A program made the translations under genes and the position numbers. The notes under the pieces were generated by a model. That model had not been told where the DNA came from and did no database searches. It saw only the letters and a program-made list of their open reading frames with translations. From NCBI RefSeq assembly GCF_009931435.1, contig NZ_CP043414.1: a stretch of 64,000 bases of DNA; one strand, written 5' to 3'. The DNA is from Escherichia coli (lineage in GTDB: Bacteria; Pseudomonadota; Gammaproteobacteria; Enterobacterales; Enterobacteriaceae). This document shows, piece after piece, positions 12,838 through 45,354 of the stretch (positions are counted from its first letter, which is position 1; the number at the start of each line of letters is the position of its first letter).

Positions 12838-13956
12838 CTACCAGGCCGGGAGCATAACGAATAAAACGTATCCCACCAGCGCCGCCCACAACAGCATCGG
12901 TATCGAATAAAGATGAAAACGCCACCAGATACGGCGATCGTTCGCCATCCGTAATGCAATCAAATTTGCCAGCGATCCGGGTAATAAACCAAAGCCACCG
13001 ACGTTTACCGCCCATGCCAGTAATAAAGACGGTGGCACATAATTGAGGAGCAAAATCGTGCTCGGCACATTACTGATCACCTGCGATAAACCAATTGCCG
13101 TTAACCATAATCCGGGTTCGGATAAATGGCTCACATTGCTCAACACGCCCTGCAAAGCTGGCAGTTGGGTCAGCAAATGGACGTCGATAAACATCGCCAT
13201 AAATACCAGCAGCAGCGTCCAGTCCACGCTGATCACCACGCGACGAGCCAGCAGCGCAAAGCCCGCCGCTACAATCACCAGTCCCCACAGCTCTTGTTTT
13301 AACTCCAGCGCCGTCAGAAAGACGATATACAGCCCCAGACAACTCCACACCAGCCGCGGTTTCCACTCAGGTGTTTGCGCCCCCGTATGATATTGCAGCG
13401 CCTTTCCAGGGAAACAACACCAGCACAGTAGCAGGAGTGTCAGCATCATTGCGCCAGCCAGCGGTGCCATTTGGGCAATAAACCCGGCAAACGAAAGACC
13501 AGAACGACCCCAGATAAGAATATTTTGCGGGTTGCCAATCGGCGTCAGTAGCGAACCCGCATTGACTGCCAGCGCCTCAAAAATAATCAGTCGATTAACC
13601 GGGATCTCACACAGTCTTTTTAGCGTGATGGTCAGCGGAACAACTATAAACAGCGCGACATCGTTGGTCAGAAAGGTAGAAAGTAGCGCCGCCGCCAGCA
13701 CCATAAACATCGCCAGCCGTCGCTCCGTAGCAAAGCGGCGCACCATTTTGCGCCCCAGCACATCAAAATAACCGCTTAACTCCACACCTTTGGTCAGCAG
13801 CATCAGACCGCTTAAGGTGATGATGGTGTGCCAGTCGATAGCAGCAGGCCAGGATTTCGGTGCAAAGGGAACAAAAAAACTTAATCCGATGCCAACAAGA
13901 ATTAATAACTGAAAAAAACGATCGCCTTGCAGCGTGCGTAAAAAAGGCAGGCTCAT
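12838..13956 (-). CDS. ybiR: Inner-membrane transporter YbiR (ArsB/NhaD-like permease)
   Basis: 372 aa, highly hydrophobic multi-TM protein; syntenic. Confidence 0.8.
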
Positions 13957-14420
13957 TTGGCACCGTGTTTCTGGGTAAACAAACGAAAGGCATCCAGCGT
14001 CTCTTCACTAACATGGTGCTCCATGCCTTCCGCGTCGCGACGGGCGATTTCCGGACTGACGCCCAACACCAACAAGAAATTTTCGACTATCTGATGTCGC
14101 TCGCGGCTTTCCTGCGCCAGTTTCTCTCCTTCTGCCGTTAAAAACACGCCACGCCAGGGGATCATTTCAATCAGCCCCATGGTTGCCAGTCGTTTGAGCA
14201 TTTTAGCCACCGTCGGTTGCGAAACGCCCAGACGAGCAGCCATGTCCACCTGACGAGCTTCCCCCACTTCCCTGATCAAGTCAGAAATCAGCTCAACGTA
14301 ATCATCAATAAGCTCGCGCCGGTGTGCCTCTCTGACCTGGCGGAACCCTTCAACGTGCTCTTCCACATTCACTAACTGCGTCACTTTTTTTGCTGTTGGC
14401 GTACCTGCGCGACGACTCAT
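13953..14420 (-). CDS. mntR: Manganese-responsive transcriptional regulator MntR (DtxR family)
   Basis: 155 aa [31 protein letters not shown]...; recognised MntR. Confidence 0.9.
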
Positions 14421-14520
14421 TGTGCTTCCTCATTATGGTGACGCATACATAGCGTTCTCATTTCGTGCGCACATTGTAAACCAGAGTTGCGAAGGTACAA
14501 AAAATTAACGTTTTAGCAAT

Positions 14521-14547
14521 AGCTATATAATATAGCCATTGCTAAAT
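14521..14547. repeat. Left junction repeat with MntR-box-like dyad (candidate attL/target duplication)
   Basis: agctatataatatagccattgctaaat; 22/27 identical to 45328-45354; lies inside larger palindrome tttagcaatagctatat/atatagccattgctaaa (14512-14546). Confidence 0.4.
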
Positions 14548-14824
14548 ACATAAAATCAAATAAAATCATAATGTTAACAAAACAAAAAAAATAATCAATG
14601 TCGCAAAAATGTCTCACAAAACAAAAGCCATAACTTATTTGCTTGTTTTTTTATAGTGTCAGTATTAATCTAGTATATCAAAATGTTATCACTTCAATTA
14701 TTCTCTGCTTAACATTTATTTAAGAAATAATATTTTTAAGCTCTTTAAAAAAACCTTAAATAACGCTGATAGTTTCTTAGGAAAACTTAACGATAGTGGT
14801 AAATTAATCCCAAAGGACTAAAAA

Positions 14825-16060
14825 ATGGTATTAAGTAACTGTATTCAATGTCAGTCATGCAAATTTATATATAGAGTTAGGGTTGGTATTGGGTTTGATA
14901 AATACCAAAGACATTATATGGACTGTTTTGAGTGTAATATTCCTATTGTTTTTGCTATACGAACAGACCCACCAAATGCTTATCTTGAAGCGGAAGAAAA
15001 CTGCCTAATTGTTGAACATAGTACAGACCACAAGGTTGTTAACTTCCATCCGGGATGTGCTTTTAATAAAGATGAGATACATCAGTCACTGATATTCCCA
15101 TCTATTGAATTGACACAAATGATTCATAAACATATGAGGATGCCGAAAGGACAACGCCTTATAAGTGCCTCTCATCAATTTGATATTCCCAACGCCCCCT
15201 CCAAATGGAATTATTTAAAATCAATAATAAAACTTATTAATGAAGGAAAGAAAGACAAAGCTCAGAATACAGCAAAGCTTTATATGCAATCAAGAAATAA
15301 AGAGTTACCTTTGTATAATGAAGATGATAGCTATTCCTCTACATCTCTAATCTATGAGTTTTTAGATTGGCTTTTCTATCCTCGAGTACATGATATAGCC
15401 GATTCCATTAAAAAAACAATTGATGACCTTAAAGAACAAAATTTGTTGGATGATTTTTACGCTTTCTATAAAGAAAATTTAAAATCCGAAAATGAACAAA
15501 GATACATCAATATAATATCAGATTTCATGGCTCGTAGAGATCATTTCGGGCAGTTAATCTATTACGCAAGAATTAACAACGATGCAATAGACGATAAGAT
15601 AATTAGCTCTAAGAACTTCGATAATGTAAGAAATTATTATGGAGATGCTTATGAAAGTCTGACATCTAACATGACTATTTTAGCATGTATTAATAACATC
15701 GTCAGTGGAAGGGCATTCGATCAGTTCAAGCAAATGACATTGAATAAATACATAAAGGATGTAAATAAAGACAGTAAAACAAACCCATTTAAGGACAACC
15801 CTTTATTTAGCGCATTTTGTGAAGATGATTTAGAGTCAGCAATAAGAAATGGTTCTCATCATGCCTCTATATGGCATGACGGAGAGAGTATTCGATATAG
15901 AAGTGGCGGAACTGGCGCAGAAAGAGAAATAAGCTATACAAAATATATTCACCTTTGTAATAAGCTAACTCTTAAAATCGTAAGTTTGTGGTTAATTGAA
16001 CTTCATATCCAACATATTTACGAAAAAGATGATAATAGCTATGCATGGTTTCATCTTTAA
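14825..16060 (+). CDS. Hypothetical 411-aa protein with N-terminal CxxCxxC...CxxC zinc-ribbon-like cluster; orphan cargo, candidate defence/abortive-infection protein
   Basis: ORF track; A/T-rich codon usage, preceded by ~270 bp of extremely A/T-rich DNA; Cys at 6,9,12,34,37; R-x4-H (RNGSHH) near C-terminus; no family recognised. Confidence 0.5.
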   Translation: MVLSNCIQCQSCKFIYRVRVGIGFDKYQRHYMDCFECNIPIVFAIRTDPPNAYLEAEENCLIVEHSTDHKVVNFHPGCAFNKDEIHQSLIFPSIELTQMIHKHMRMPKGQRLISASHQFDIPNAPSKWNYLKSIIKLINEGKKDKAQNTAKLYMQSRNKELPLYNEDDSYSSTSLIYEFLDWLFYPRVHDIADSIKKTIDDLKEQNLLDDFYAFYKENLKSENEQRYINIISDFMARRDHFGQLIYYARINNDAIDDKIISSKNFDNVRNYYGDAYESLTSNMTILACINNIVSGRAFDQFKQMTLNKYIKDVNKDSKTNPFKDNPLFSAFCEDDLESAIRNGSHHASIWHDGESIRYRSGGTGAEREISYTKYIHLCNKLTLKIVSLWLIELHIQHIYEKDDNSYAWFHL

Positions 16061-16081
16061 GTTAAATATTTGATTCACTAA

Positions 16082-16368
16082 TTTTCAGTTTCTACTCACT
16101 CTAATGATTGTACATAGCCCGCACCATTCTTGGTATTGCGGGCTTTCAGCCGTTTATATCACTTAACGCAATTAGATCATGCAACTTTACACAATATGGT
16201 TTTTTCTATTATTTTTCAGTTGGTTGAATGGATTAGCCATCACACAACTGATCTATAAAACTGAAAAACACTGAAATTCTTTTCAATCTTTTCAGTGGCA
16301 GCTCTCCGGCAAACCGCCAACAGTGGCGCAGCCTGACGCTCACGTTTGTAGAAAAATAAAACTGAAAA
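16082..16368. repeat. Non-coding region with repeated TTTTCAG / CTGAAAA heptamers
   Basis: TTTTCAG at about 16082, 16213, 16289; CTGAAAA/CTGAAAT at about 16261, 16271, 16362; between convergent cargo gene and phage tail operon. Confidence 0.4.
16116..16144 (+). terminator. Possible terminator downstream of the 411-aa gene
   Basis: Hairpin agcccgca...tgcgggct followed by ttcagccgtttat (weak T-run). Confidence 0.35.
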
Positions 16369-16555
16369 ATTTTATCGATCCAGAAACCGCAGGCGGGTGC
16401 GGTGTAGTGCCATTTTGGTCTGCGAAAGATTTATTTTGTCAGTGCGTAGTGCCGTCAGCGCAACGTGACAGCACAGATCCTTTTGTGGTGTTACGGGATG
16501 GTGGTCAGAGAAAAAAAGTGCTTAGAATGCTTCTGGTTGCGTGAGAATACAGGTA

Positions 16556-16578
16556 TAAAAAACCCGCACTAGGCGGGT
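16556..16578 (-). terminator. Rho-independent terminator of the phage late (tail) operon
   Basis: On minus strand: hairpin cccgcctagtgcggg followed by ttttttatac, 12 nt after stop of 16590-16844 ORF. Confidence 0.6.
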
Positions 16579-16589
16579 ACTAAAGAGAG

Positions 16590-16844
16590 CTATTTCATTT
16601 CGTTAAGTGCGTACGCACCTCTATCAGTGAGTGCAAAAAAGCCATCCCTTACGCTGGGTTGAATCAACCCAAACATACGCAATTCACCCAGTATTTGTTC
16701 TGAGCGACTACCAGCACCAGAATGCTTAATTAGTGCAAATTCAGGCTGTGCTTCTTCACTGAGCAAAGTCAATATTTTGACAATGGCGTCACGTTTGCTT
16801 TCATCTGCAATGTCATGGTATGGATTGATGGAACAGGTTACCAT
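16590..16844 (-). CDS. Hypothetical 84-aa protein, possible winged-helix DNA-binding fold
   Basis: ORF track; last gene of tail-operon direction; C-terminal segment GSRSEQILGELRMFGLIQ...FFALTDRGAYAL resembles wHTH regulators. Confidence 0.4.
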   Translation of the reverse strand: MVTCSINPYHDIADESKRDAIVKILTLLSEEAQPEFALIKHSGAGSRSEQILGELRMFGLIQPSVRDGFFALTDRGAYALNEMK

Positions 16845-17020
16845 AGTGTTTTCCTTTTTTTATGAAAATCATATTTTACCATATCCCAACACGCCATATT
16901 GAAGTGCTCAATATTCACTCACCCTAAAAGGTATCTGTTGTGCAATCAGTTCCCCTACTCCCAGGTATCGCGGTTAAACAGGTATCAAAAAGCCGCATTA
17001 TGCGCGGGCTGATGGGATGA

Positions 17021-18724
17021 TCAGGCGATGATTTTCTGGTACTTACTTCGGGTCTGTCCTGCTTTCTCTGCTGTCTGGGTAAATGCTCCGGCATTGGTTG
17101 GCGTACCAACACTGGGGTGCGAATGACTCGCACATTGCTGCGCCAGCTCTGCCAGTAAATCAATGGTGTCCAACATCATGGTCAGCGTGTTTACACTCTC
17201 ACTGCCGATATGGATGGTTGGCCCCATAATCTGCTGACCGCCCGATGCTACCGATTTGCGTAATGCAGTAATCTTTTCAGTCAGGCTTTCGCCAACCTCC
17301 ACGGCTACAGCACCGCCCACTTTAATGGACTGCTGTCCTGCTATGTCCGTTTCTTCGTTTCCTTCAATGCTGGCCAGCCTGTTACCTTTCACGGCCTGGC
17401 TAAAATCCCCGGCACTGACCTGCTGAATGGCTCCGGCTAGCAGGGTGGCGGTCCCCACCACAATGGTTTTATCCGTGGCTTTAACCGTGGTTTCGCGACT
17501 GACCAGATCACGTTGTTCTGTATCTGCTTTTACCGTTCGCACCATCGATGTTTCACTGATGGTCTGATCGGTCTGCCTTACCCAGTCACCCGCCAGAGTC
17601 ACCCTCTGGGATACTTCTTCCCGCTGCTGCTGCAATTGCTCACCGGGTTTAACGTCCGGCAGACTGGTGCCATCCGGTAGCGTCTGCCTGATAAAAGGTT
17701 TATCCGGTCTGCCTCCTGTGAATGCGACCTCAACCAGCGTCCCTTCTGGCGGGAACTGAAACATACCTGAATCATTCCCGGCCATTGGTACCGGCAGCGG
17801 CACCGCTGAATAAACAGGCGTCTGATTGTCCGGATTTCCGTCTGCGTCAAGCAGCTGCACGTCCACGGCGTAACGTGGCCGGAAGGGATCGGCAAAGTTA
17901 CCGCTTTTTACCGGCTCTGAATGCGCCACGACTCTGGCCATCTTTGGCAAATGAAGCCCGGATGCCAGTTCCGGGTAATGGCTTTCAATCTGCCGTTGCG
18001 CTGGTGTTTTCTGCAAAGGTTTACCCGTTGCGCGGTTTCTCGGCGTCCATGTGATCGCCATCGTGTCATTAGTCAGGTGAACTTTAGTCACGCGTTCACC
18101 GTTCATCTCCACCCCTGGCCGCATAGTCTGGATCACTGGTAATGTCACAGAGTTACCGCCAGCAGCCCCCTGGCTGAACTCTGACGGGATTTCTACTGGA
18201 CGACCGGCAAACAATGACTTTTCTGCGCCGCCGACGTAAAGCGAACCATCAGGTAACTGGTACCAGATGTAATCCTGGATACTGAACGCCCTGCCCAGAT
18301 TGTTCAGCAACTGATAACCAGTACCGTTATGGGTAAAATGTGGGATGGGGGTATCGCTGTACTGTGCATCAGGCACACTGACCGTGATCCCGCTGTTTTC
18401 TTCCAGCCAGCCCGCAATTTCACGCAAAGTCGGGTGTTGAAACGAACATGGCCACATCCTTTCAAACACACCTACCAGCTCACGAATGAATAGGCGCTGA
18501 AAACCGTTTTCAGCGGGCTGCGATCGCTCCACATACCCCGTAAACCAGCGCAAAAGCAGATCGGTATACCCCACATCCAGCCGCACCAGTTTTCCGGTGT
18601 AATCGGTTGTTGTCTCTGCGGTGATGAAGCCCCGGCCGCAGCTGTTCAGCTCCAGTACCAGGCTGACATCCACCAGGTGAACTTCATCCGTTGAAAGGTA
18701 AAGACGTTTTACTGGTTTCATCAT
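17021..18724 (-). CDS. Phage tail/baseplate protein, probable hub-spike (gpD/VgrG-like), 567 aa
   Basis: Size, position at end of tail module, Gly/Thr/Val-rich beta-strand-like C-terminal half; family assignment by recall only. Confidence 0.45.
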   Translation of the reverse strand: MMKPVKRLYLSTDEVHLVDVSLVLELNSCGRGFITAETTTDYTGKLVRLDVGYTDLLLRWFTGYVERSQPAENGFQRLFIRELVGVFERMWPCSFQHPTLREIAGWLEENSGITVSVPDAQYSDTPIPHFTHNGTGYQLLNNLGRAFSIQDYIWYQLPDGSLYVGGAEKSLFAGRPVEIPSEFSQGAAGGNSVTLPVIQTMRPGVEMNGERVTKVHLTNDTMAITWTPRNRATGKPLQKTPAQRQIESHYPELASGLHLPKMARVVAHSEPVKSGNFADPFRPRYAVDVQLLDADGNPDNQTPVYSAVPLPVPMAGNDSGMFQFPPEGTLVEVAFTGGRPDKPFIRQTLPDGTSLPDVKPGEQLQQQREEVSQRVTLAGDWVRQTDQTISETSMVRTVKADTEQRDLVSRETTVKATDKTIVVGTATLLAGAIQQVSAGDFSQAVKGNRLASIEGNEETDIAGQQSIKVGGAVAVEVGESLTEKITALRKSVASGGQQIMGPTIHIGSESVNTLTMMLDTIDLLAELAQQCASHSHPSVGTPTNAGAFTQTAEKAGQTRSKYQKIIA

Positions 18725-19269
18725 TAATCCAAAGCATCATTGACGGGCTTCAGCACCTTGCGTTCAAACCACGTCAGTTTTTCTTCATCCTCTCCGGCAG
18801 ACTGGCCACCGAACTGCCCCGCACTACCGGCAGTCTGTTTTTTTGCGGTCGTCTTACCTGTTGCCCTGGCCTCTCGCTTTTCCTGCACGCTGATATGTTC
18901 AGCCAGTGTGAATGTCACCAGCCAGGACATTTTCCCGTCCTGCTGGGGCGCATCCAGCATTCCGCTGAACGTTGCTTCACGAAAATTAACAGCACGGGCA
19001 ACTTCATGCGCCACGCGGTACTTCTGACGATTACCACTGGCATCGGTAGCACTGGCCAGCTCAAAAATACGCTTCAGTATTTCAGGCTGTTTAAAAGGTA
19101 TTTCACCGCTGATCCGCAGTTCCTTTCCCTTTGCTCCCTGCTCTGATTTTGTTGTGGCACTGGTCTGGCCGGACTGATCTTTATCCTGAAATTGCTGTGA
19201 AACAGTCACCCGCATGTTTTTCAGCTGGATGGCCTCGCCATTAAGCGCCAGTGTCGGGATCGAAGTCAT
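18724..19269 (-). CDS. Phage tail-associated protein (possibly gpU-like), 181 aa
   Basis: Start overlaps stop of upstream gene; located in tail module; no motif recognised. Confidence 0.35.
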   Translation of the reverse strand: MTSIPTLALNGEAIQLKNMRVTVSQQFQDKDQSGQTSATTKSEQGAKGKELRISGEIPFKQPEILKRIFELASATDASGNRQKYRVAHEVARAVNFREATFSGMLDAPQQDGKMSWLVTFTLAEHISVQEKREARATGKTTAKKQTAGSAGQFGGQSAGEDEEKLTWFERKVLKPVNDALD

Positions 19270-19966
19270 GAATCATTCCCTTTATTCCATCAAGATTATC
19301 GCCAACCAGCATCATGGCTGCGGTGTAAACGGCAGACTGCTGCGGAATGTCCTTCACCAGTTCCAGTAACGTTGTGCCGGTGTCTCCGCTGGCAGTAAAA
19401 ACCCACGCTCTGGCACTCTTCCCCTGTAAGTCATTCAGGCCGCTGGCCACATCACTGATAAGCTGGTCACGCAGCTGCGTGAACTCGCCCAGCTGTTTTT
19501 TCAGCCCTTCGATATCAAATCCGGCACCCGCCACCTTTTGTGCCTGGTTGATTGCCGCAGCAGATAAAGCTGCCCTGCTGGTTGGTACAGACAGTGGAAT
19601 GGACGCAGGTAACGCTGCGGCGGTTTTCGCCGGGATCTGCATCTTTTCAATAGCCAGCGCTGCGGCGGATTGCGCCAGCCGTTTTACCTGCGTGAATGCC
19701 GGGGCGGGGAAAATCCCGACCAGGTTATTCAGGCTGGCCATAAAGTTTTCCTGCGTCTGTCCGGTGACCATCATAATCACCACGTCCACATTCCCCCCAG
19801 TTCCGGCCAGGCGTTCAGCAAGATAGCGAACAGCATTAACCGGGCTGAGATATGCCCCGTTCGCTGTCTGCTGTCCCAGCCCATAAATCCACGGATGCGC
19901 AGGGACGATCGAACAGTTCAGCGCAGCAACAGAATCCGTGAAGGCCAGACGTGCTTCACGCCACAT
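19241..19966 (-). CDS. Phage tail-associated protein of unknown function
   Basis: Track ORF 19241-20002; likely start at internal ATG (MWREARLAF...) overlapping Tfa stop; Ala-rich. Confidence 0.35.
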   Translation of the reverse strand: MWREARLAFTDSVAALNCSIVPAHPWIYGLGQQTANGAYLSPVNAVRYLAERLAGTGGNVDVVIMMVTGQTQENFMASLNNLVGIFPAPAFTQVKRLAQSAAALAIEKMQIPAKTAAALPASIPLSVPTSRAALSAAAINQAQKVAGAGFDIEGLKKQLGEFTQLRDQLISDVASGLNDLQGKSARAWVFTASGDTGTTLLELVKDIPQQSAVYTAAMMLVGDNLDGIKGMIHDFDPDTGA

Positions 19967-20543
19967 TTCCAGGCACCTCCGGCCACACAATTTCCGGCGC
20001 ATCTTCCGCTTGAATACGATTCAGTAAAACGCGGTATTTTTTCCATGCGGTAAGTAACAATGTTTCTTCCTGGCTCGCCATGCCTAAAACAACAGCATCC
20101 TGCAATGTGGCAATGGCAGTATGGGCCTGTTTAAGCAGTCTTATCTTTTCCAATTCTGCCTCACGGGTTAATGCAACTCGCATAGACTCAGCATCATCCT
20201 CCCATTTACTGCCATTCCATTTTTGCCATGCGTTTTCAGGCTCCAGAGTAGTTGTTCCAGCTGGATAATCCCCTGGTGCTGTTATCACGAACCTTCTAGC
20301 GTCTTTCGTATCAAATACAATTTCGCCACGGTGATCTTTAATAGCAATCCATTTCTGTTTTTCTGTATTAAAAATTGCCACGAATCCGTCTTTTGTTAAT
20401 GGAGGTTTAATTGTGGTGCAATTGGCTGGTAGTCCTGTGTGAGCGGGAATAAAAGCGTTATCACTACCAATAAACTCATTCGTCTCAGAATGAAGTTTAT
20501 AAACAGTAACTGTTTGATCGATATCACTCATTTTAAATATCAT
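19956..20543 (-). CDS. Tail fiber assembly protein (Tfa, gpG-like)
   Basis: 195 aa directly downstream of tail fiber gene with overlapping start/stop; typical Tfa size and N-terminal motif. Confidence 0.7.
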   Translation of the reverse strand: MIFKMSDIDQTVTVYKLHSETNEFIGSDNAFIPAHTGLPANCTTIKPPLTKDGFVAIFNTEKQKWIAIKDHRGEIVFDTKDARRFVITAPGDYPAGTTTLEPENAWQKWNGSKWEDDAESMRVALTREAELEKIRLLKQAHTAIATLQDAVVLGMASQEETLLLTAWKKYRVLLNRIQAEDAPEIVWPEVPGNVA

Positions 20544-22150
20544 TAAGCGAGTCTCACGATATAGTTTAATGCAATGTTTTTAACAGTGTTTTCTGAAGTA
20601 CCCGCAGCATTAACCGTAATGGTGTGTCCATGCGAACCAATCGCAACAGAGTGCGTATGAGCACCAATACCGACAGTATGTTTATGCTCCCCAGCACTTG
20701 CTGCAGTACCTGATACCGAGTGGGTGTGTGCGCCCGCAGAATTCGTTGCACCTAAGTGAGTTTGAGCAGAGTTCGACGAAGCTACTCTACCGGAGCTAAC
20801 GTTAGCATTATCTCCCTGAGATATCGGATGTGTATGTGCACCTGCTGAAGCAGCTGTTCCGCTAACACTATGGGTATGAGCACCAGTGTTATTCGTAGAT
20901 TTAGTTCCATAATCAAACGATGATGTGGTTTTTGTCCCTAAATCGGTATTTGAGGCACTGGCGCTATGGGTATGTGACTTAATATTATCCTGTTCATAAG
21001 ATAATACGGCACGTCCGCTGTTAGGCTTACCTTTAATCGTCTGCCCGCGCATATCAGGAATAACACCCAATGGATACGCAGCAGCCAATAATGGATATAC
21101 TGCCTTATCAAAAGACTGCCCCTGCATAATTGCCCAGCCAGGAGGTGGAATATCTGCTGGCCATGGAAGTGGAACACCAACCGGCAGAACATCACTACGA
21201 CTTAAAACGGCCAGTTCACCCAGCTCCAGGCTTTTTCTTGCTTTCACCTTGTCGCTAACATCAGCAAGGTTTGCATCCTTACGCAAAAAATCGCTGCTGG
21301 CCTGCTGTTCTCCCAGGCTACCCTTTGGCCGTAAATCCGTGATGTTGCCATCCGCATCAATGCTGGCCACAGCAAACACATAATGCTGAACCCCGTTCTG
21401 AACATAATCAGCAAGATTTGCTGCCACCGTGATTTTGCTCTGCACATTCCAGACACTGGTCAGTGTCCCTGTCCAGCACACATCCAGCCAGACTTTTACC
21501 GGCTTTGTCGTTACCGTAATATTCTGATTCGCAGCCAGTGACGCACGAAGTCCAGCCACATACCCCGTGCCTTTCGTGACAAAAAACTGATTGCCGGTTT
21601 TGGCTACCAGATACCCGTTACCAAAAAACGCCGCCGCGCCATAAATATCCATATTTTCCAGGCGCTGGCGTTCATCCATTCCGGCCAGACGTGCAGTAAA
21701 ATCAATCTGCCATGTTTCAGCGGGTGTATTAATCCCGGTTTCCGTTTGTGCGCCATTGTACTCCATCAGAAACGAGCGGGTCAGCACGTTCCCCTGTTGA
21801 CCTTCTTTTGTTTTCAGTTTCTGCTGTGATGGTGCATGGACAATCATTGCCAGCGTACCGCTGGCCTTATTGAGCAGACCGATCCAGTTAAAACTGAAAT
21901 CACCCACATCTGCGCCCAGCACTACGGAATAGACCACACCGTTTTCATCCACCACACCGGTGCGGGTAACAGACTGCCGGTGAACAATCTGTGCAGCCGG
22001 TGGTAATGTTTCATTGCGGTCAACAGGTGTATCCGGGTTTAAATCCGGCACACTGGCAAAAACAAATTCATCCAGTAGTACCGGTTCACCCGTTGCGCCC
22101 TGCTGCGCTTTCCAGTTTTCAAACGCCAATGTGATGGCTGTCTGTGACAT
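20543..22150 (-). CDS. Tail fiber protein (gpH-like) with C-terminal His-rich GAHTHS-type repeats
   Basis: 535 aa; repeated [15 protein letters not shown] / GAHTHPIS / [15 protein letters not shown] units near C-terminus. Confidence 0.75.
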
Positions 22151-43304: not shown

Positions 43305-44360
43305 ATGAGTGTTCGTAAACTTCCTACTGGCGAATGGATCGCCGACTTCTACACCGTCAACCGCAGCAATGGTAAAAACGGGAAGCGTATACGTAAAAAA
43401 TTTGCCACTAAGGGAGAAGCCCTGGCATTTGAGAATCACACGCTTCAAAAGGTAGATAGTGCGCCGTGGTTAGGTGAAGGGAAAGATAAACGAACATTAA
43501 TCGACCTGATTACAATGTGGTACGAGCGCCACGGCGTTGCCCTACGCAATGGTAAAAAGCGTAAAGACGCAATGACCTGGGCGGCGGAGTGTATGGGTTT
43601 TCCGCTGGCCACTGAGTTTAATGCCCAGCTGTTTACAGCATACCGTGCAAAAAGGCTTGAAGGGCATTATGCCCGTACTAACCGTGTTTCTAAGGTTTCA
43701 CCTAAAACAATGAACCTTGAACACGCATATTTTCTGGCTATGTTCAATGAACTGAAACGGATCGGTGAGTGGTCAGCCCCTAACCCACTGGAGAACGTCA
43801 GACAGTACCGTACAGATGAAACTGAAATGGCATTTCTCACTGCTGAGGAAATTGATCGGCTTTTGCTGGAATGCAAACGCAGTAAAGTAAGTTATTTAGA
43901 GTTAGTCGTAAAAATCTGTCTGGCGACTGGCGCAAGATGGAATGAAGCGGCAACACTCAAAAGTTCCCAGATAGCCGGCGGAAAAGTCACCTTCATAAAA
44001 ACAAAAGGGAAAAGGAACCGTTCCATTCCGTTAGATGATGAACTGCTGGCTGAACTACCCGAAACAAAAGGCGCTCTGTTTCCAAAGCCCTGCTATAACG
44101 CTTTCCGTTCCGCTCTGGAACGTGCTGGCATTGAACTACCAGCAGGTCAGCTTACCCACGTACTACGCCATACATTTGCCAGCCACTTTATGATGAACAG
44201 CGGCAACATTCTGGTTCTCCAAAAAATCCTCGGCCATGCCGATATCACTATGACAATGCGGTATGCGCATTTCGCCCCAAGCCACCTTGAAGACGCTGTG
44301 CGACTTAATCCCTTAAAATGCCGCAGCAGCTTAGAAATACTGTCGAGTACCAAAACATAA
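43305..44360 (+). CDS. int: Tyrosine-type phage integrase
   Basis: 351 aa; C-terminal catalytic region HVLRHTFASH...LGHADITMTMRYAHF (R, HxxR, Y). Confidence 0.85.
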   Translation: MSVRKLPTGEWIADFYTVNRSNGKNGKRIRKKFATKGEALAFENHTLQKVDSAPWLGEGKDKRTLIDLITMWYERHGVALRNGKKRKDAMTWAAECMGFPLATEFNAQLFTAYRAKRLEGHYARTNRVSKVSPKTMNLEHAYFLAMFNELKRIGEWSAPNPLENVRQYRTDETEMAFLTAEEIDRLLLECKRSKVSYLELVVKICLATGARWNEAATLKSSQIAGGKVTFIKTKGKRNRSIPLDDELLAELPETKGALFPKPCYNAFRSALERAGIELPAGQLTHVLRHTFASHFMMNSGNILVLQKILGHADITMTMRYAHFAPSHLEDAVRLNPLKCRSSLEILSSTKT

Positions 44361-44380: not shown

Positions 44381-44962
44381 CTAACCTGTTTTCAGCAACA
44401 ACCACTGGAGGAAAACAACAACAATGTAGATTAAAGTTACAGACCCCAGAAACAGCAATAGTTGACAAAAATGAATAAAGGCCGGATGGTGAAGTTTTTG
44501 AGGAACCAAGGTTATATTTCGTGCAATTCCTTCTTTACATCTCACTGTGAGCAACGCGGGTAAGTCAGTATTTATCGACATAACCTCACATCGTATAGAT
44601 TCATGTGGTGCAAGATAATCAAACAACATAACCTGCCTTTCTTCGGCATCACTCTTAATTGTGTAATGCCTTGAGGGCCAAATGTTTACGTACATAGGTG
44701 GGTAATTGAAAATTATCTCCACATTAGTAGCAGGTTCTTTTCCTTCGTTTTTAAAGGCATAGGATTTTGTATGCACCACCTGTTTTGCCTTAACAATTTC
44801 ACCTTCAGCATTACGTAACGGCTCGTTAATTAAATAGCTATATTGGTGAAGCTCTCCATAGCAAATTTTCGCTCCATTTTTAAAAATCTTATTGATAAAT
44901 AAGGTAAAAACAGGAACGAAAAGTGCAAATATTTCTTTCCCATACTGAGTAAGTATATTCAT
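44381..44962 (-). CDS. Hypothetical 193-aa protein with C-terminal TM helix; orphan cargo adjacent to int
   Basis: ORF track; A/T-rich; hydrophobic C-terminus AFIHFCQLLLFLGSVTLIYIVVVFLQWLLL; convergent with int; weak RBS. Confidence 0.4.
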   Translation of the reverse strand: MNILTQYGKEIFALFVPVFTLFINKIFKNGAKICYGELHQYSYLINEPLRNAEGEIVKAKQVVHTKSYAFKNEGKEPATNVEIIFNYPPMYVNIWPSRHYTIKSDAEERQVMLFDYLAPHESIRCEVMSINTDLPALLTVRCKEGIARNITLVPQKLHHPAFIHFCQLLLFLGSVTLIYIVVVFLQWLLLKTG

Positions 44963-45327: not shown

Positions 45328-45354
45328 TGCTTTATAATATAGCCTGTGCTATAT
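45328..45354. promoter_or_regulatory. Right junction repeat containing MntR box (ATAGC-N4-GCTAT) upstream of mntS
   Basis: tgctttataatatagcctgtgctatat; palindrome ATAGCctgtGCTAT matches MntR operator architecture; 22/27 identical to 14521-14547. Confidence 0.5.

Follow-up and report, generated by a model that had tools for sequence, protein, structure and literature searches.

The three genes that follow the tail fibre assembly gene (Tfa) in a 64,000-nucleotide stretch of Escherichia coli DNA (the window) most probably form a conserved module for the centre of the baseplate, at the end of the late tail operon in an HP1-type Peduoviridae prophage, a reading to which we assign a probability of about 93%. 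The largest of their products, a protein of 567 amino acids (aa), is supported by its predicted structure as a fused gpD-like hub and gpV/gp5-like spike with the architecture of VgrG and Afp8. The features on which this reading rests are collected in Table 1.

Table 1. Features of the late tail region, in window coordinates
Feature	Position	Strand	Remarks
Terminator-like hairpin (intrinsic type)	16993..17007	(-)	Ends the late tail operon
HP1 orf35-like gene	17021..18724	(-)	567 aa; predicted fused hub (gpD/gp27-like) and central spike (gpV/gp5-like)
C-terminal cap	17024..17194	(-)	His534-x-His536; candidate metal-binding apex
Triple-stranded beta-helix needle region	17195..17572	(-)	~aa 385-510
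OB-fold region (gpV/gp5 N-terminal, VgrG)	17573..17962	(-)	~aa 255-384, boundaries approximate
Predicted hub domain (gp27/gpD/Mu gp44-like)	17975..18724	(-)	~aa 1-250, boundaries approximate
HP1 orf34-like gene	18724..19269	(-)	181 aa; Pfam HP1_ORF34, "baseplate complex protein"
HP1 orf33-like gene	19241..19966	(-)	241 aa; conserved tail or baseplate protein, probably of low copy number
Tail fibre assembly gene (Tfa)	19956..20543	(-)	Caudo_TAP, E 4.9e-32; stop overlaps orf33-like start
Fibre gene	20543-22150		Upstream of Tfa
Baseplate wedge genes	22161..24269	(-)	Pfam matches; order as HP1 orf28-30
Tail_P2_I gene	22161-22754	(-)	Pfam
Baseplate_J gene	22741-23979	(-)	Pfam
DUF2590 (gpW-like sheath initiator)	23922-24269	(-)	Pfam
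TMP gene	24248-26215		Overlaps W-like gene

Gene order and conservation of the module

The prophage is a member of the genus Quadragintavirus, of HP1-type Peduoviridae. It occupies about 30.8 kb (window ~14548-45328) and is inserted in E. coli with mntS/rybA on one side and mntR on the other. Its ends were set by comparison with K-12; no exact long direct repeat was found for att, only an imperfect match of ~24 bp with 12 bp at its core that match exactly. The ORF translations, together with the annotation of ESSI2_ev015, show the P2-family backbone (gpQ, P, O, N and M head genes, gpA-type replication, Cox/CI/Int), and over the stretch of the three genes the DNA is ~93% identical to that of Quadragintavirus ESSI2_ev015.

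An earlier note on this DNA, made without database searches, had described three genes of 253, 181 and 567 aa after Tfa. Three consecutive minus-strand ORFs are indeed present, but the first gene encodes 241 aa: the maximal ORF (19241-20002, 253 aa) extends past the real start, an ATG at 19966 with GGAGG 9 nt before it, which is also the start called by PGAP; almost every homologue has this length of 241 aa. The order upstream of the three genes was found as the note had given it (sheath, tube at 27785-28240, lysis genes, chaperone, TMP, W-like, J, I, fibre, Tfa). The TMP and W-like genes overlap, so that neither a hub nor a spike gene separates them. Tfa and the orf33-like gene overlap by 11 nt, the orf33-like and orf34-like genes by 29 nt, and the orf34-like and orf35-like genes by 1 nt, which suggests translational coupling. 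Among these four genes we saw neither a promoter nor a terminator at any junction, and no change of strand; Tfa and the gene after it are not separated by a gap. The terminator-like hairpin (CCGCGCATAATGCGG, then CTTTTTGATA) lies 13 nt past the stop of the 567-aa gene, at the place equivalent to the annotated terminator T39 of K139.

Each of the three proteins has an HP1 counterpart, with identities of 41% to orf35 (E 1e-156), 40% to orf34 (E 4e-37) and 26% to orf33 (tblastn E 1e-13). Judged from the window ORFs and their Pfam matches, the order TMP, DUF2590, J, I, fibre, Tfa, orf33, orf34, orf35, terminator is that of the HP1 subgroup; it corresponds to HP1 orf23-orf35 and recurs in K139, F108, SI7, YenM_324 and ESSI2_ev015. 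Specifically, the counterparts of the three genes are orf33-orf34-orf35 in HP1 (Hpunavirus), orf37-39 in K139, orf42-44 in F108, gp22-24 in SI7, gp33-35 in YenM_324 and gp03-01 in ESSI2_ev015. In all six phages the families, order and orientation are the same, and the genes come after Tfa as the last of the late operon, followed, as here, by the terminator and then the attP/int region, with no substantive difference from the arrangement in the window. The gene lengths (726, 546 and 1704 nt) are constant in all relatives, and the enterobacterial orf33-like protein lacks an N-terminal extension of ~55-70 aa that is found in K139 and many other family members.

At least seven Peduoviridae genera have these three genes at the end of the late operon. 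Salmonella prophages carry them as well, as do five prophages at mntR in E. coli. Among 80 IMG/VR viral loci collected via the middle, orf34-like gene, the three are adjacent, in the same order and on the same strand, with fixed spacing, in 78; each of the remaining two is missing one flanking gene. The note's statement that these genes fall outside the canonical P2 order holds for P2 itself, but within the P2 family the order is canonical for the HP1 subgroup. Likewise, its "relocated" hub genes do include a hub and a spike, but they stand in the ancestral arrangement of the HP1 subgroup, and no rearrangement took place in this phage. The arrangement is ordinary and already known. In a literature search we found no study devoted to HP1 orf33/34/35, to Quadragintavirus or to vB_YenM_324 proteomics; the useful source was PMC10612066.

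A predicted fused hub and spike

At the N-terminus of the 567-aa protein, the predicted structure shows a hub fold of the gp27/gpD/Mu gp44 type. The AF2 pLDDT is 85-94 over aa 1-180, and the hub-only structures 1wru, 3cdd, 3d37 and 6u5h_C align with the predicted hub over ~210-220 residues at 2.3-2.9 A. The assignment of the N-terminal half as a hub is thus one at the level of the fold, from a predicted structure with a mean pLDDT of 80. Pfam Phage_GPD matched none of the 49 orf35-family members, and hhalign of the orf35 family gave a probability of 0.3% against P2 gpD and no signal against P2 gpV, each template being a single sequence and hence a weak test.

The hub is followed by an OB-fold, found in whole-length VgrG alignments as well as in the match of VgrG 6sjl to aa 292-355. 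Pfam Phage_base_V matches aa 309-345 just below its cut-off (E 1.2e-4; 22.8 bits vs 23.8) and is matched by 22 of the 49 family members, with a best E of 2.2e-6. The C-terminal triple-stranded beta-helix is found through sequence matches: phmmer aligns aa 414-508 with the beta-helix of T4 gp5 (E 1e-6), and there are matches to Gp5_trimer_C and Gp5_C among the family members. In the monomer AF2 model the needle region lacks regular secondary structure, as would be expected if the helix forms only in the trimer. At the C-terminal end, His534 and His536 are invariant in all 49 sequences, the AF2 monomer places helices around the His-x-His motif, and the Pfam "GpV Apex motif" is matched by three of the 49 members (best E 0.0013). 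By analogy with P2 gpV and phi92 gp138, this cap may bind a metal.

In P2 and Mu, hub and spike are separate proteins (gpD and gpV in P2, gp44 and gp45 in Mu), and here they are a single polypeptide; the note was right in substance in expecting both, but they do not have a gene each. In P2, moreover, V heads a separate operon before W-J-I-H-G, whereas the hub-spike gene here ends the late operon; sequence-level similarity between the 567-aa protein and P2 gpD or gpV is not detectable. The fused layout is shared with VgrG of the type VI secretion system (T6SS) and with Afp8 and PVC8 of extracellular contractile injection systems (eCIS), at identities of 11-16%; unlike these, the 567-aa protein is encoded among phage tail genes, outside any effector or secretion context. 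The NCBIfam vgr_GE model scores 16 bits, far below its cut-off of 122.

This likeness could be taken to mean that the three genes were recently captured from a T6SS or an eCIS and grafted onto a P2-like tail, since the best whole-length structural matches of the 567-aa protein are eCIS, PVC, Afp and T6SS VgrG proteins, and P2-type split hubs and spikes score lower. We regard such a capture as very improbable. The three genes are present in all HP1-subgroup genera sampled, they have diverged in step with the other tail genes (the identities to HP1 orf35 and orf34 given above), and no T6SS or eCIS genes were found nearby. In addition, the corresponding hub and spike are encoded as two genes in ACA1 and C5a. 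PMC10612066 concludes that the HP1 and P2 tails are old paralogues, the HP1 module being one as a whole.

Under the preferred reading, that of a phage baseplate-centre module, transcription of the late tail operon would end with these three genes. Trimers of the 567-aa product would form the central hub together with a membrane-piercing spike, each chain contributing to both: it has an N-terminal gp27/gpD-like hub, which would dock on the tail tube and the tape measure, then an OB-fold, a gp5-type beta-helix and a His-x-His cap. The protein would thereby perform the separate tasks of P2 gpD and gpV, in the manner of VgrG, Afp8 and PVC8.

The 181-aa and 241-aa proteins

The 181-aa protein matches PF25759 (HP1_ORF34) over profile positions 2-176 of 180 (E 2e-53; 181.1 bits vs a cut-off of 27), as do all seven aligned orthologues, and phrog_1398 with E 1.8e-73; PGAP labels its homologues "baseplate complex protein". 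It may be a gpU-like tube initiator. P2 gpU, annotated as "tail - tube initiator" in one phage record, has 159 aa and occupies the same place, directly upstream of the hub gene, whereas the 181-aa protein belongs to a Pfam family of its own. In HMMER, the orthologues did not match Phage_P2_GpU even at E 10. Against a 7-sequence gpU alignment, hhalign of the 181-aa family gave a weak, collinear N-terminal alignment over 70 columns that is not statistically significant, at a probability of 0.5% and E 0.13; against single P2 gpU and gpX sequences, a weak test as templates, it gave no signal. A scan of viral contigs for P2 gpU yielded only sequences at least 97% identical to that of P2, unusable for a diverse profile. 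For the ACA1 homologue, an HHpred link to gpU has been reported and marked "uncertain" (PMC10612066).

The 241-aa protein, searched as a single sequence and as a 58-sequence profile, gave nothing meaningful in Pfam, NCBIfam, PADLOC or the PDB. It matches none of gpU, gpD and gpX, no solved structural relative was found, and hhalign of the orf33 family against the 7-sequence gpU alignment returned nothing. Its model contains a long helical hairpin. Inspection of the listed ORFs of the late region, by eye rather than by profile scan, gave no candidate for a gpX-like small LysM gene elsewhere.

An alternative that we consider unlikely, though far less so than a capture, is that only the 567-aa protein is a virion part, and that the 241-aa protein, the 181-aa protein or both act only in assembly, as non-structural chaperones or as factors for the fibre or baseplate, and are missing from mature virions. 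Mass spectrometry of ACA1 virions did not detect the 181-aa homologue and gave only two spectra for the 241-aa homologue, but the method often misses low-copy baseplate proteins, and gpW and gpJ gave only one or two spectra in the same experiment. The gene for the 241-aa protein comes straight after that of the fibre chaperone, which it overlaps, and the hairpin-containing model of the protein matches no solved baseplate protein; on the other hand, its homologue YenM_324 gp33 is annotated "structural protein", and both Pfam and PGAP name the 181-aa family as a baseplate complex protein. Furthermore, contractile baseplates do not normally work without a layer of tube initiator or adaptor, for which we infer that no other candidate gene is present.

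The reading that we favour instead takes both products as accessory, hub-proximal baseplate proteins, most likely a tube initiator or hub adaptor functionally equivalent to P2 gpU and gpX, with their stoichiometry and position in the baseplate likewise presumed. Altogether, of the note's proposal that the three genes are the displaced gpU, gpD and hub-spike equivalents, the 567-aa hub-spike fold and the conserved structural module stand; a gpU could not be demonstrated, and the 241-aa protein resembles none of gpU, gpD and gpX. The HMM searches it had suggested returned HP1_ORF34 for the 181-aa protein and Phage_base_V just under its cut-off for the 567-aa protein, with no match to Phage_GPD or Phage_P2_GpU.

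The cargo site and implications for annotation

The note had also compared the position after Tfa with the P2 Z/fun hotspot, which would make the three genes accessory cargo for defence or lysogenic conversion. Besides the resemblance of position, this reading has in its favour that two of the proteins carry the annotation "hypothetical". Nevertheless, this reading is refuted, because the three genes do not vary among the relatives that we examined, form overlaps with one another and with Tfa, and lie upstream of the segment that does vary, and we give it practically no probability. The variable segment (14548-17020) is located between the operon terminator and attL. Moreover, the GC content of the three genes is phage-like (0.52-0.56, against a prophage mean of 0.50 and 0.33-0.43 in neighbouring cargo), a PADLOC search of them gave no defence match, the 567-aa protein has a predicted hub-spike fold, and removing its gene would leave the phage with no hub or spike gene at all. 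Cargo or defence candidates were accordingly rejected among these constant, overlapping, operon-strand genes. Like P2 with its Z/fun, old and tin hotspots, this phage does have a variable, attP-proximal cargo site beyond the tail operon; it does not lie between Tfa and the three genes, and these are excluded from it. The site carries in this genome an uncharacterised 411-aa gene of 33% GC, at 14825-16060.

The tail module, which appeared non-canonical, is therefore an HP1-type layout of the P2 family, with a fused, VgrG-like hub-spike at the end of the operon. The consequence is mainly one of correct annotation, with little beyond it: in thousands of enterobacterial genomes, PGAP still labels the hub-spike and orf33-like genes "hypothetical protein", even though a role can be assigned to them. 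For the mining of defence cargo in this phage family, the segment to search is the attP-adjacent one downstream of the three genes, and not the position after Tfa.

Orthology and gene structure of the trio

The three minus-strand genes that follow the tail-fiber assembly gene (Tfa) are orthologs of orf33, orf34, and orf35 of Haemophilus phage HP1, and the entire late operon is collinear with HP1 orf23 to orf35. The 567-aa protein shares 41% identity with HP1 orf35 over the full length (E 1e-156), the 181-aa protein 40% identity with orf34 (E 4e-37), and the 241-aa protein 26% identity with orf33 (E 1e-13, tblastn). The same trio closes the late operon after Tfa in Vibrio phage K139 (orf37-39, with the annotated terminator T39 next), Pasteurella phage F108 (orf42-44), Salmonella phage SI7 (gp22-24), Yersinia phage vB_YenM_324 (gp33-35, gp33 being annotated “structural protein”), and Escherichia phage ESSI2_ev015 (gp03-01; Peduoviridae, genus Quadragintavirus), which has ~93% DNA identity across the trio region. 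When IMG/VR was scanned with the middle gene as the query and 80 loci were kept, the three genes were adjacent, in the same strand and order, and at fixed spacing in 78; each of the other two lacked one flanking gene.

In P2, the order is V-W-J-I-H-G, then Z/fun, and then FI-FII-E-T-U-D, from which the late-operon layout of the window differs. The earlier note's statement that the trio departs from the canonical P2 order thus holds against P2 itself but not against the HP1 subgroup of the same family, whose canonical layout is the one found here.

Upstream, the genes run sheath, tube, holin, endolysin, spanins, chaperone, tape measure (TMP), DUF2590 (W-like), Baseplate_J, Tail_P2_I, fiber, and Tfa; the interval between TMP and the W-like gene contains neither a hub nor a spike gene. 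This order, the gene positions, and the absence of a hub or spike gene from that interval had been described correctly, except that the first trio gene encodes 241 aa, not 253. Its true start is the ATG at 19966, 9 nt past GGAGG, which is also used by PGAP, and nearly all homologs are 241 aa long. The orf33-like start overlaps the Tfa stop by 11 nt, the orf33-like and orf34-like genes overlap by 29 nt, and the orf34-like and orf35-like genes by 1 nt (TAATG), which suggests translational coupling. The 567-aa ORF opens with two ATG codons (MMKP...); since the HP1 orf35 alignment begins at the second Met and Salmonella homologs are annotated with a length of 566 or 567 aa, the second ATG may be the true start.

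Coordinates of features in the window
Feature	Position	Strand	Remark
mntR	13953-14420
Palindrome, 35 bp	14512-14546
Left prophage end (attL)	~14523-14546
Variable segment	14548-17020
411-aa ORF	14825-16060	+	33% GC
Terminator-like hairpin	16578-16562		belongs to 84-aa ORF
84-aa ORF	16590-16844	-	just downstream of tail operon
Terminator-like hairpin with T run	17007-16993		13 nt after last trio stop codon
orf35-like ORF	17021-18724	-	567 aa
orf34-like ORF	18724-19269	-	181 aa
orf33-like maximal ORF	19241-20002	-
Tfa	19956-20543		directly before trio; Caudo_TAP
Tail fiber	20543-22150
32-aa ORF	31119-31217	-	His-rich
Integrase gene	43305-44360
193-aa ORF	44381-44962	-	37% GC
Right prophage end (attR)	~45330-45353

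Predicted roles of the trio proteins

Sequence features and structure matches together identify the 567-aa protein as a predicted gpD-like hub fused to a gpV/gp5-like spike. PHROGs places it in phrog_2258, “baseplate protein” (E 3.5e-276). An OB-fold is indicated by a Phage_base_V match at aa 309-345, slightly below the cut-off (22 of 49 orf35-family members match this model), and by a match to VgrG 6sjl at aa 292-355. These are followed by a T4 gp5-type beta-helix match at aa 414-508 (E 1e-6) and, in the C-terminal region, by a His-x-His (H534, H536) conserved in all 49 sequences, three of which match the Pfam “GpV Apex” motif. When the AF2-predicted monomer was compared with solved structures, fused hub-spike proteins scored 21.9 (eCIS spike 9gtr_q, 448 residues aligned), 21.0 (PVC8), 20.2 (T6SS VgrG 2p5z), and 19.6 (Afp8), hub-only proteins 19.7 (MuSo2 3cdd), 18.3 (Mu gp44), and 16.1 (Pyocin R2 hub), and spike-only proteins 8.4 (Mu gp45), 7.6 (R2 spike), and 7.1 (P2 gpV). 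No sequence-level match of the protein or its family to Pfam Phage_GPD, P2 gpD, or P2 gpV was detectable. The earlier proposal of displaced hub and spike equivalents was therefore essentially right, with both parts in this one protein.

The hub-spike identity of HP1 orf35-type proteins is already published: in the HP1-subgroup phage ACA1, gpD-like gp48 and gpV-like gp49, both present in virions, correspond to the N- and C-terminal halves of HP1 orf35, respectively, their equivalents being fused in HP1 (PMC10612066).

The 181-aa protein is a clear member of PF25759, “Bacteriophage HP1 ORF34 baseplate complex protein” (Pfam, E 2e-53), and PGAP calls some homologs “baseplate complex protein”. Its ACA1 homolog, not detected in virions, was tentatively tied to P2 gpU via HHpred and flagged as uncertain (PMC10612066). 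Our profile-profile comparison of the orf34 family with a 7-sequence gpU alignment was collinear and insignificant (probability 0.5%, E 0.13), and HMMER found nothing between the family and gpU. Position and size make a tube initiator or adaptor plausible.

The 241-aa protein falls in phrog_1677 (function unknown) and, as a single sequence or profile, has no Pfam, NCBIfam, PADLOC, or PDB sequence match; its family is small, with 111 clusters at 50% identity among 1.84 billion representatives. ACA1 gp46 (“HP1 orf33”) was detected in virions with 2 spectra, a low level similar to that of gpW and gpJ in that experiment (PMC10612066). It is best interpreted as a low-copy baseplate protein confined to the HP1 lineage, with an assembly factor as a possible alternative.

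The prophage at mntR

The window is E. coli chromosome, with mntR flanked by ybiR, ldtB, and ybiT on one side and opgE, ompX, rhtA, dps, and glnH on the other, and strain MFDS1016424 is 99.9-100% identical across the stretches compared. Relative to K-12, a P2-family prophage of ~30.8 kb is inserted between mntS/rybA and mntR: K-12 homology ends at 14547 and restarts at 45329, and the two alignment blocks overlap by 26 bp. The prophage ends form an imperfect ~24-bp match with an exact 12-bp core, TATAATATAGCC. The left copy sits within the palindrome, a possible regulatory site, between mntS/rybA and mntR.

Between the integrase gene and attR, the 193-aa ORF, with a hydrophobic C-terminus and no Pfam or PADLOC match, is probably a second cargo gene, on the opposite side of attP. 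The 32-aa ORF, between the small-terminase and gpL-like genes, carries AHTHS repeats resembling those in the tail fiber C-terminus; at the corresponding position, ESSI2_ev015 has an annotated 65-aa gene, “L33”.

Core module and downstream cargo

In five E. coli prophages at mntR, the trio is constant, and gene content differs in the attP-proximal segment downstream of it, from the operon terminator to attL. This segment holds the gene for a 411-aa protein here, an AIPR-family protein in strain 573 (NZ_CP102853), and elsewhere DUF6680 with a hypothetical protein and DprA, an AAA ATPase with serine O-acetyltransferase, or two hypothetical proteins with DUF6338. A cargo hotspot thus exists in this phage family, as had been supposed, one step beyond the place proposed directly after Tfa. 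Strain 573 carries this prophage in degraded form: a fiber pseudogene abuts a replication-endonuclease pseudogene, indicating a large internal deletion, and Tfa, an intact trio, and the AIPR gene are still present.

The 411-aa protein has an N-terminal CxxC...CxxC motif, a weak Cys_rich_CPXG match (E 0.03), and no match in Pfam, PHROGs, NCBIfam, PADLOC, PDB, or the phage collection. Of 5426 complete E. coli genomes, one carries its gene; at 90% identity, the protein falls in a cluster of 46 members from E. coli and Salmonella. In Salmonella, a related prophage integrated elsewhere in the chromosome has the gene in the corresponding position, converging on its orf35-like gene. The 411-aa gene is therefore a phage-borne moron and a candidate for a new defense gene. 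The 84-aa ORF has no family match (NCBIfam and PADLOC among those searched), is kept in several related mntR prophages, and is recorded with identical sequence on 821 contigs.

All tests agree that the trio is core: it is invariant among relatives, its genes overlap, its GC is phage-like (0.52-0.56 vs 0.50 for the whole prophage), PADLOC gives no defense-family match, and no other hub or spike is encoded in the prophage genome. On these grounds, we reject the reading of the trio as cargo. The trio is an ordinary, already-described structural module, whose orf33-like member has a predicted orphan fold.
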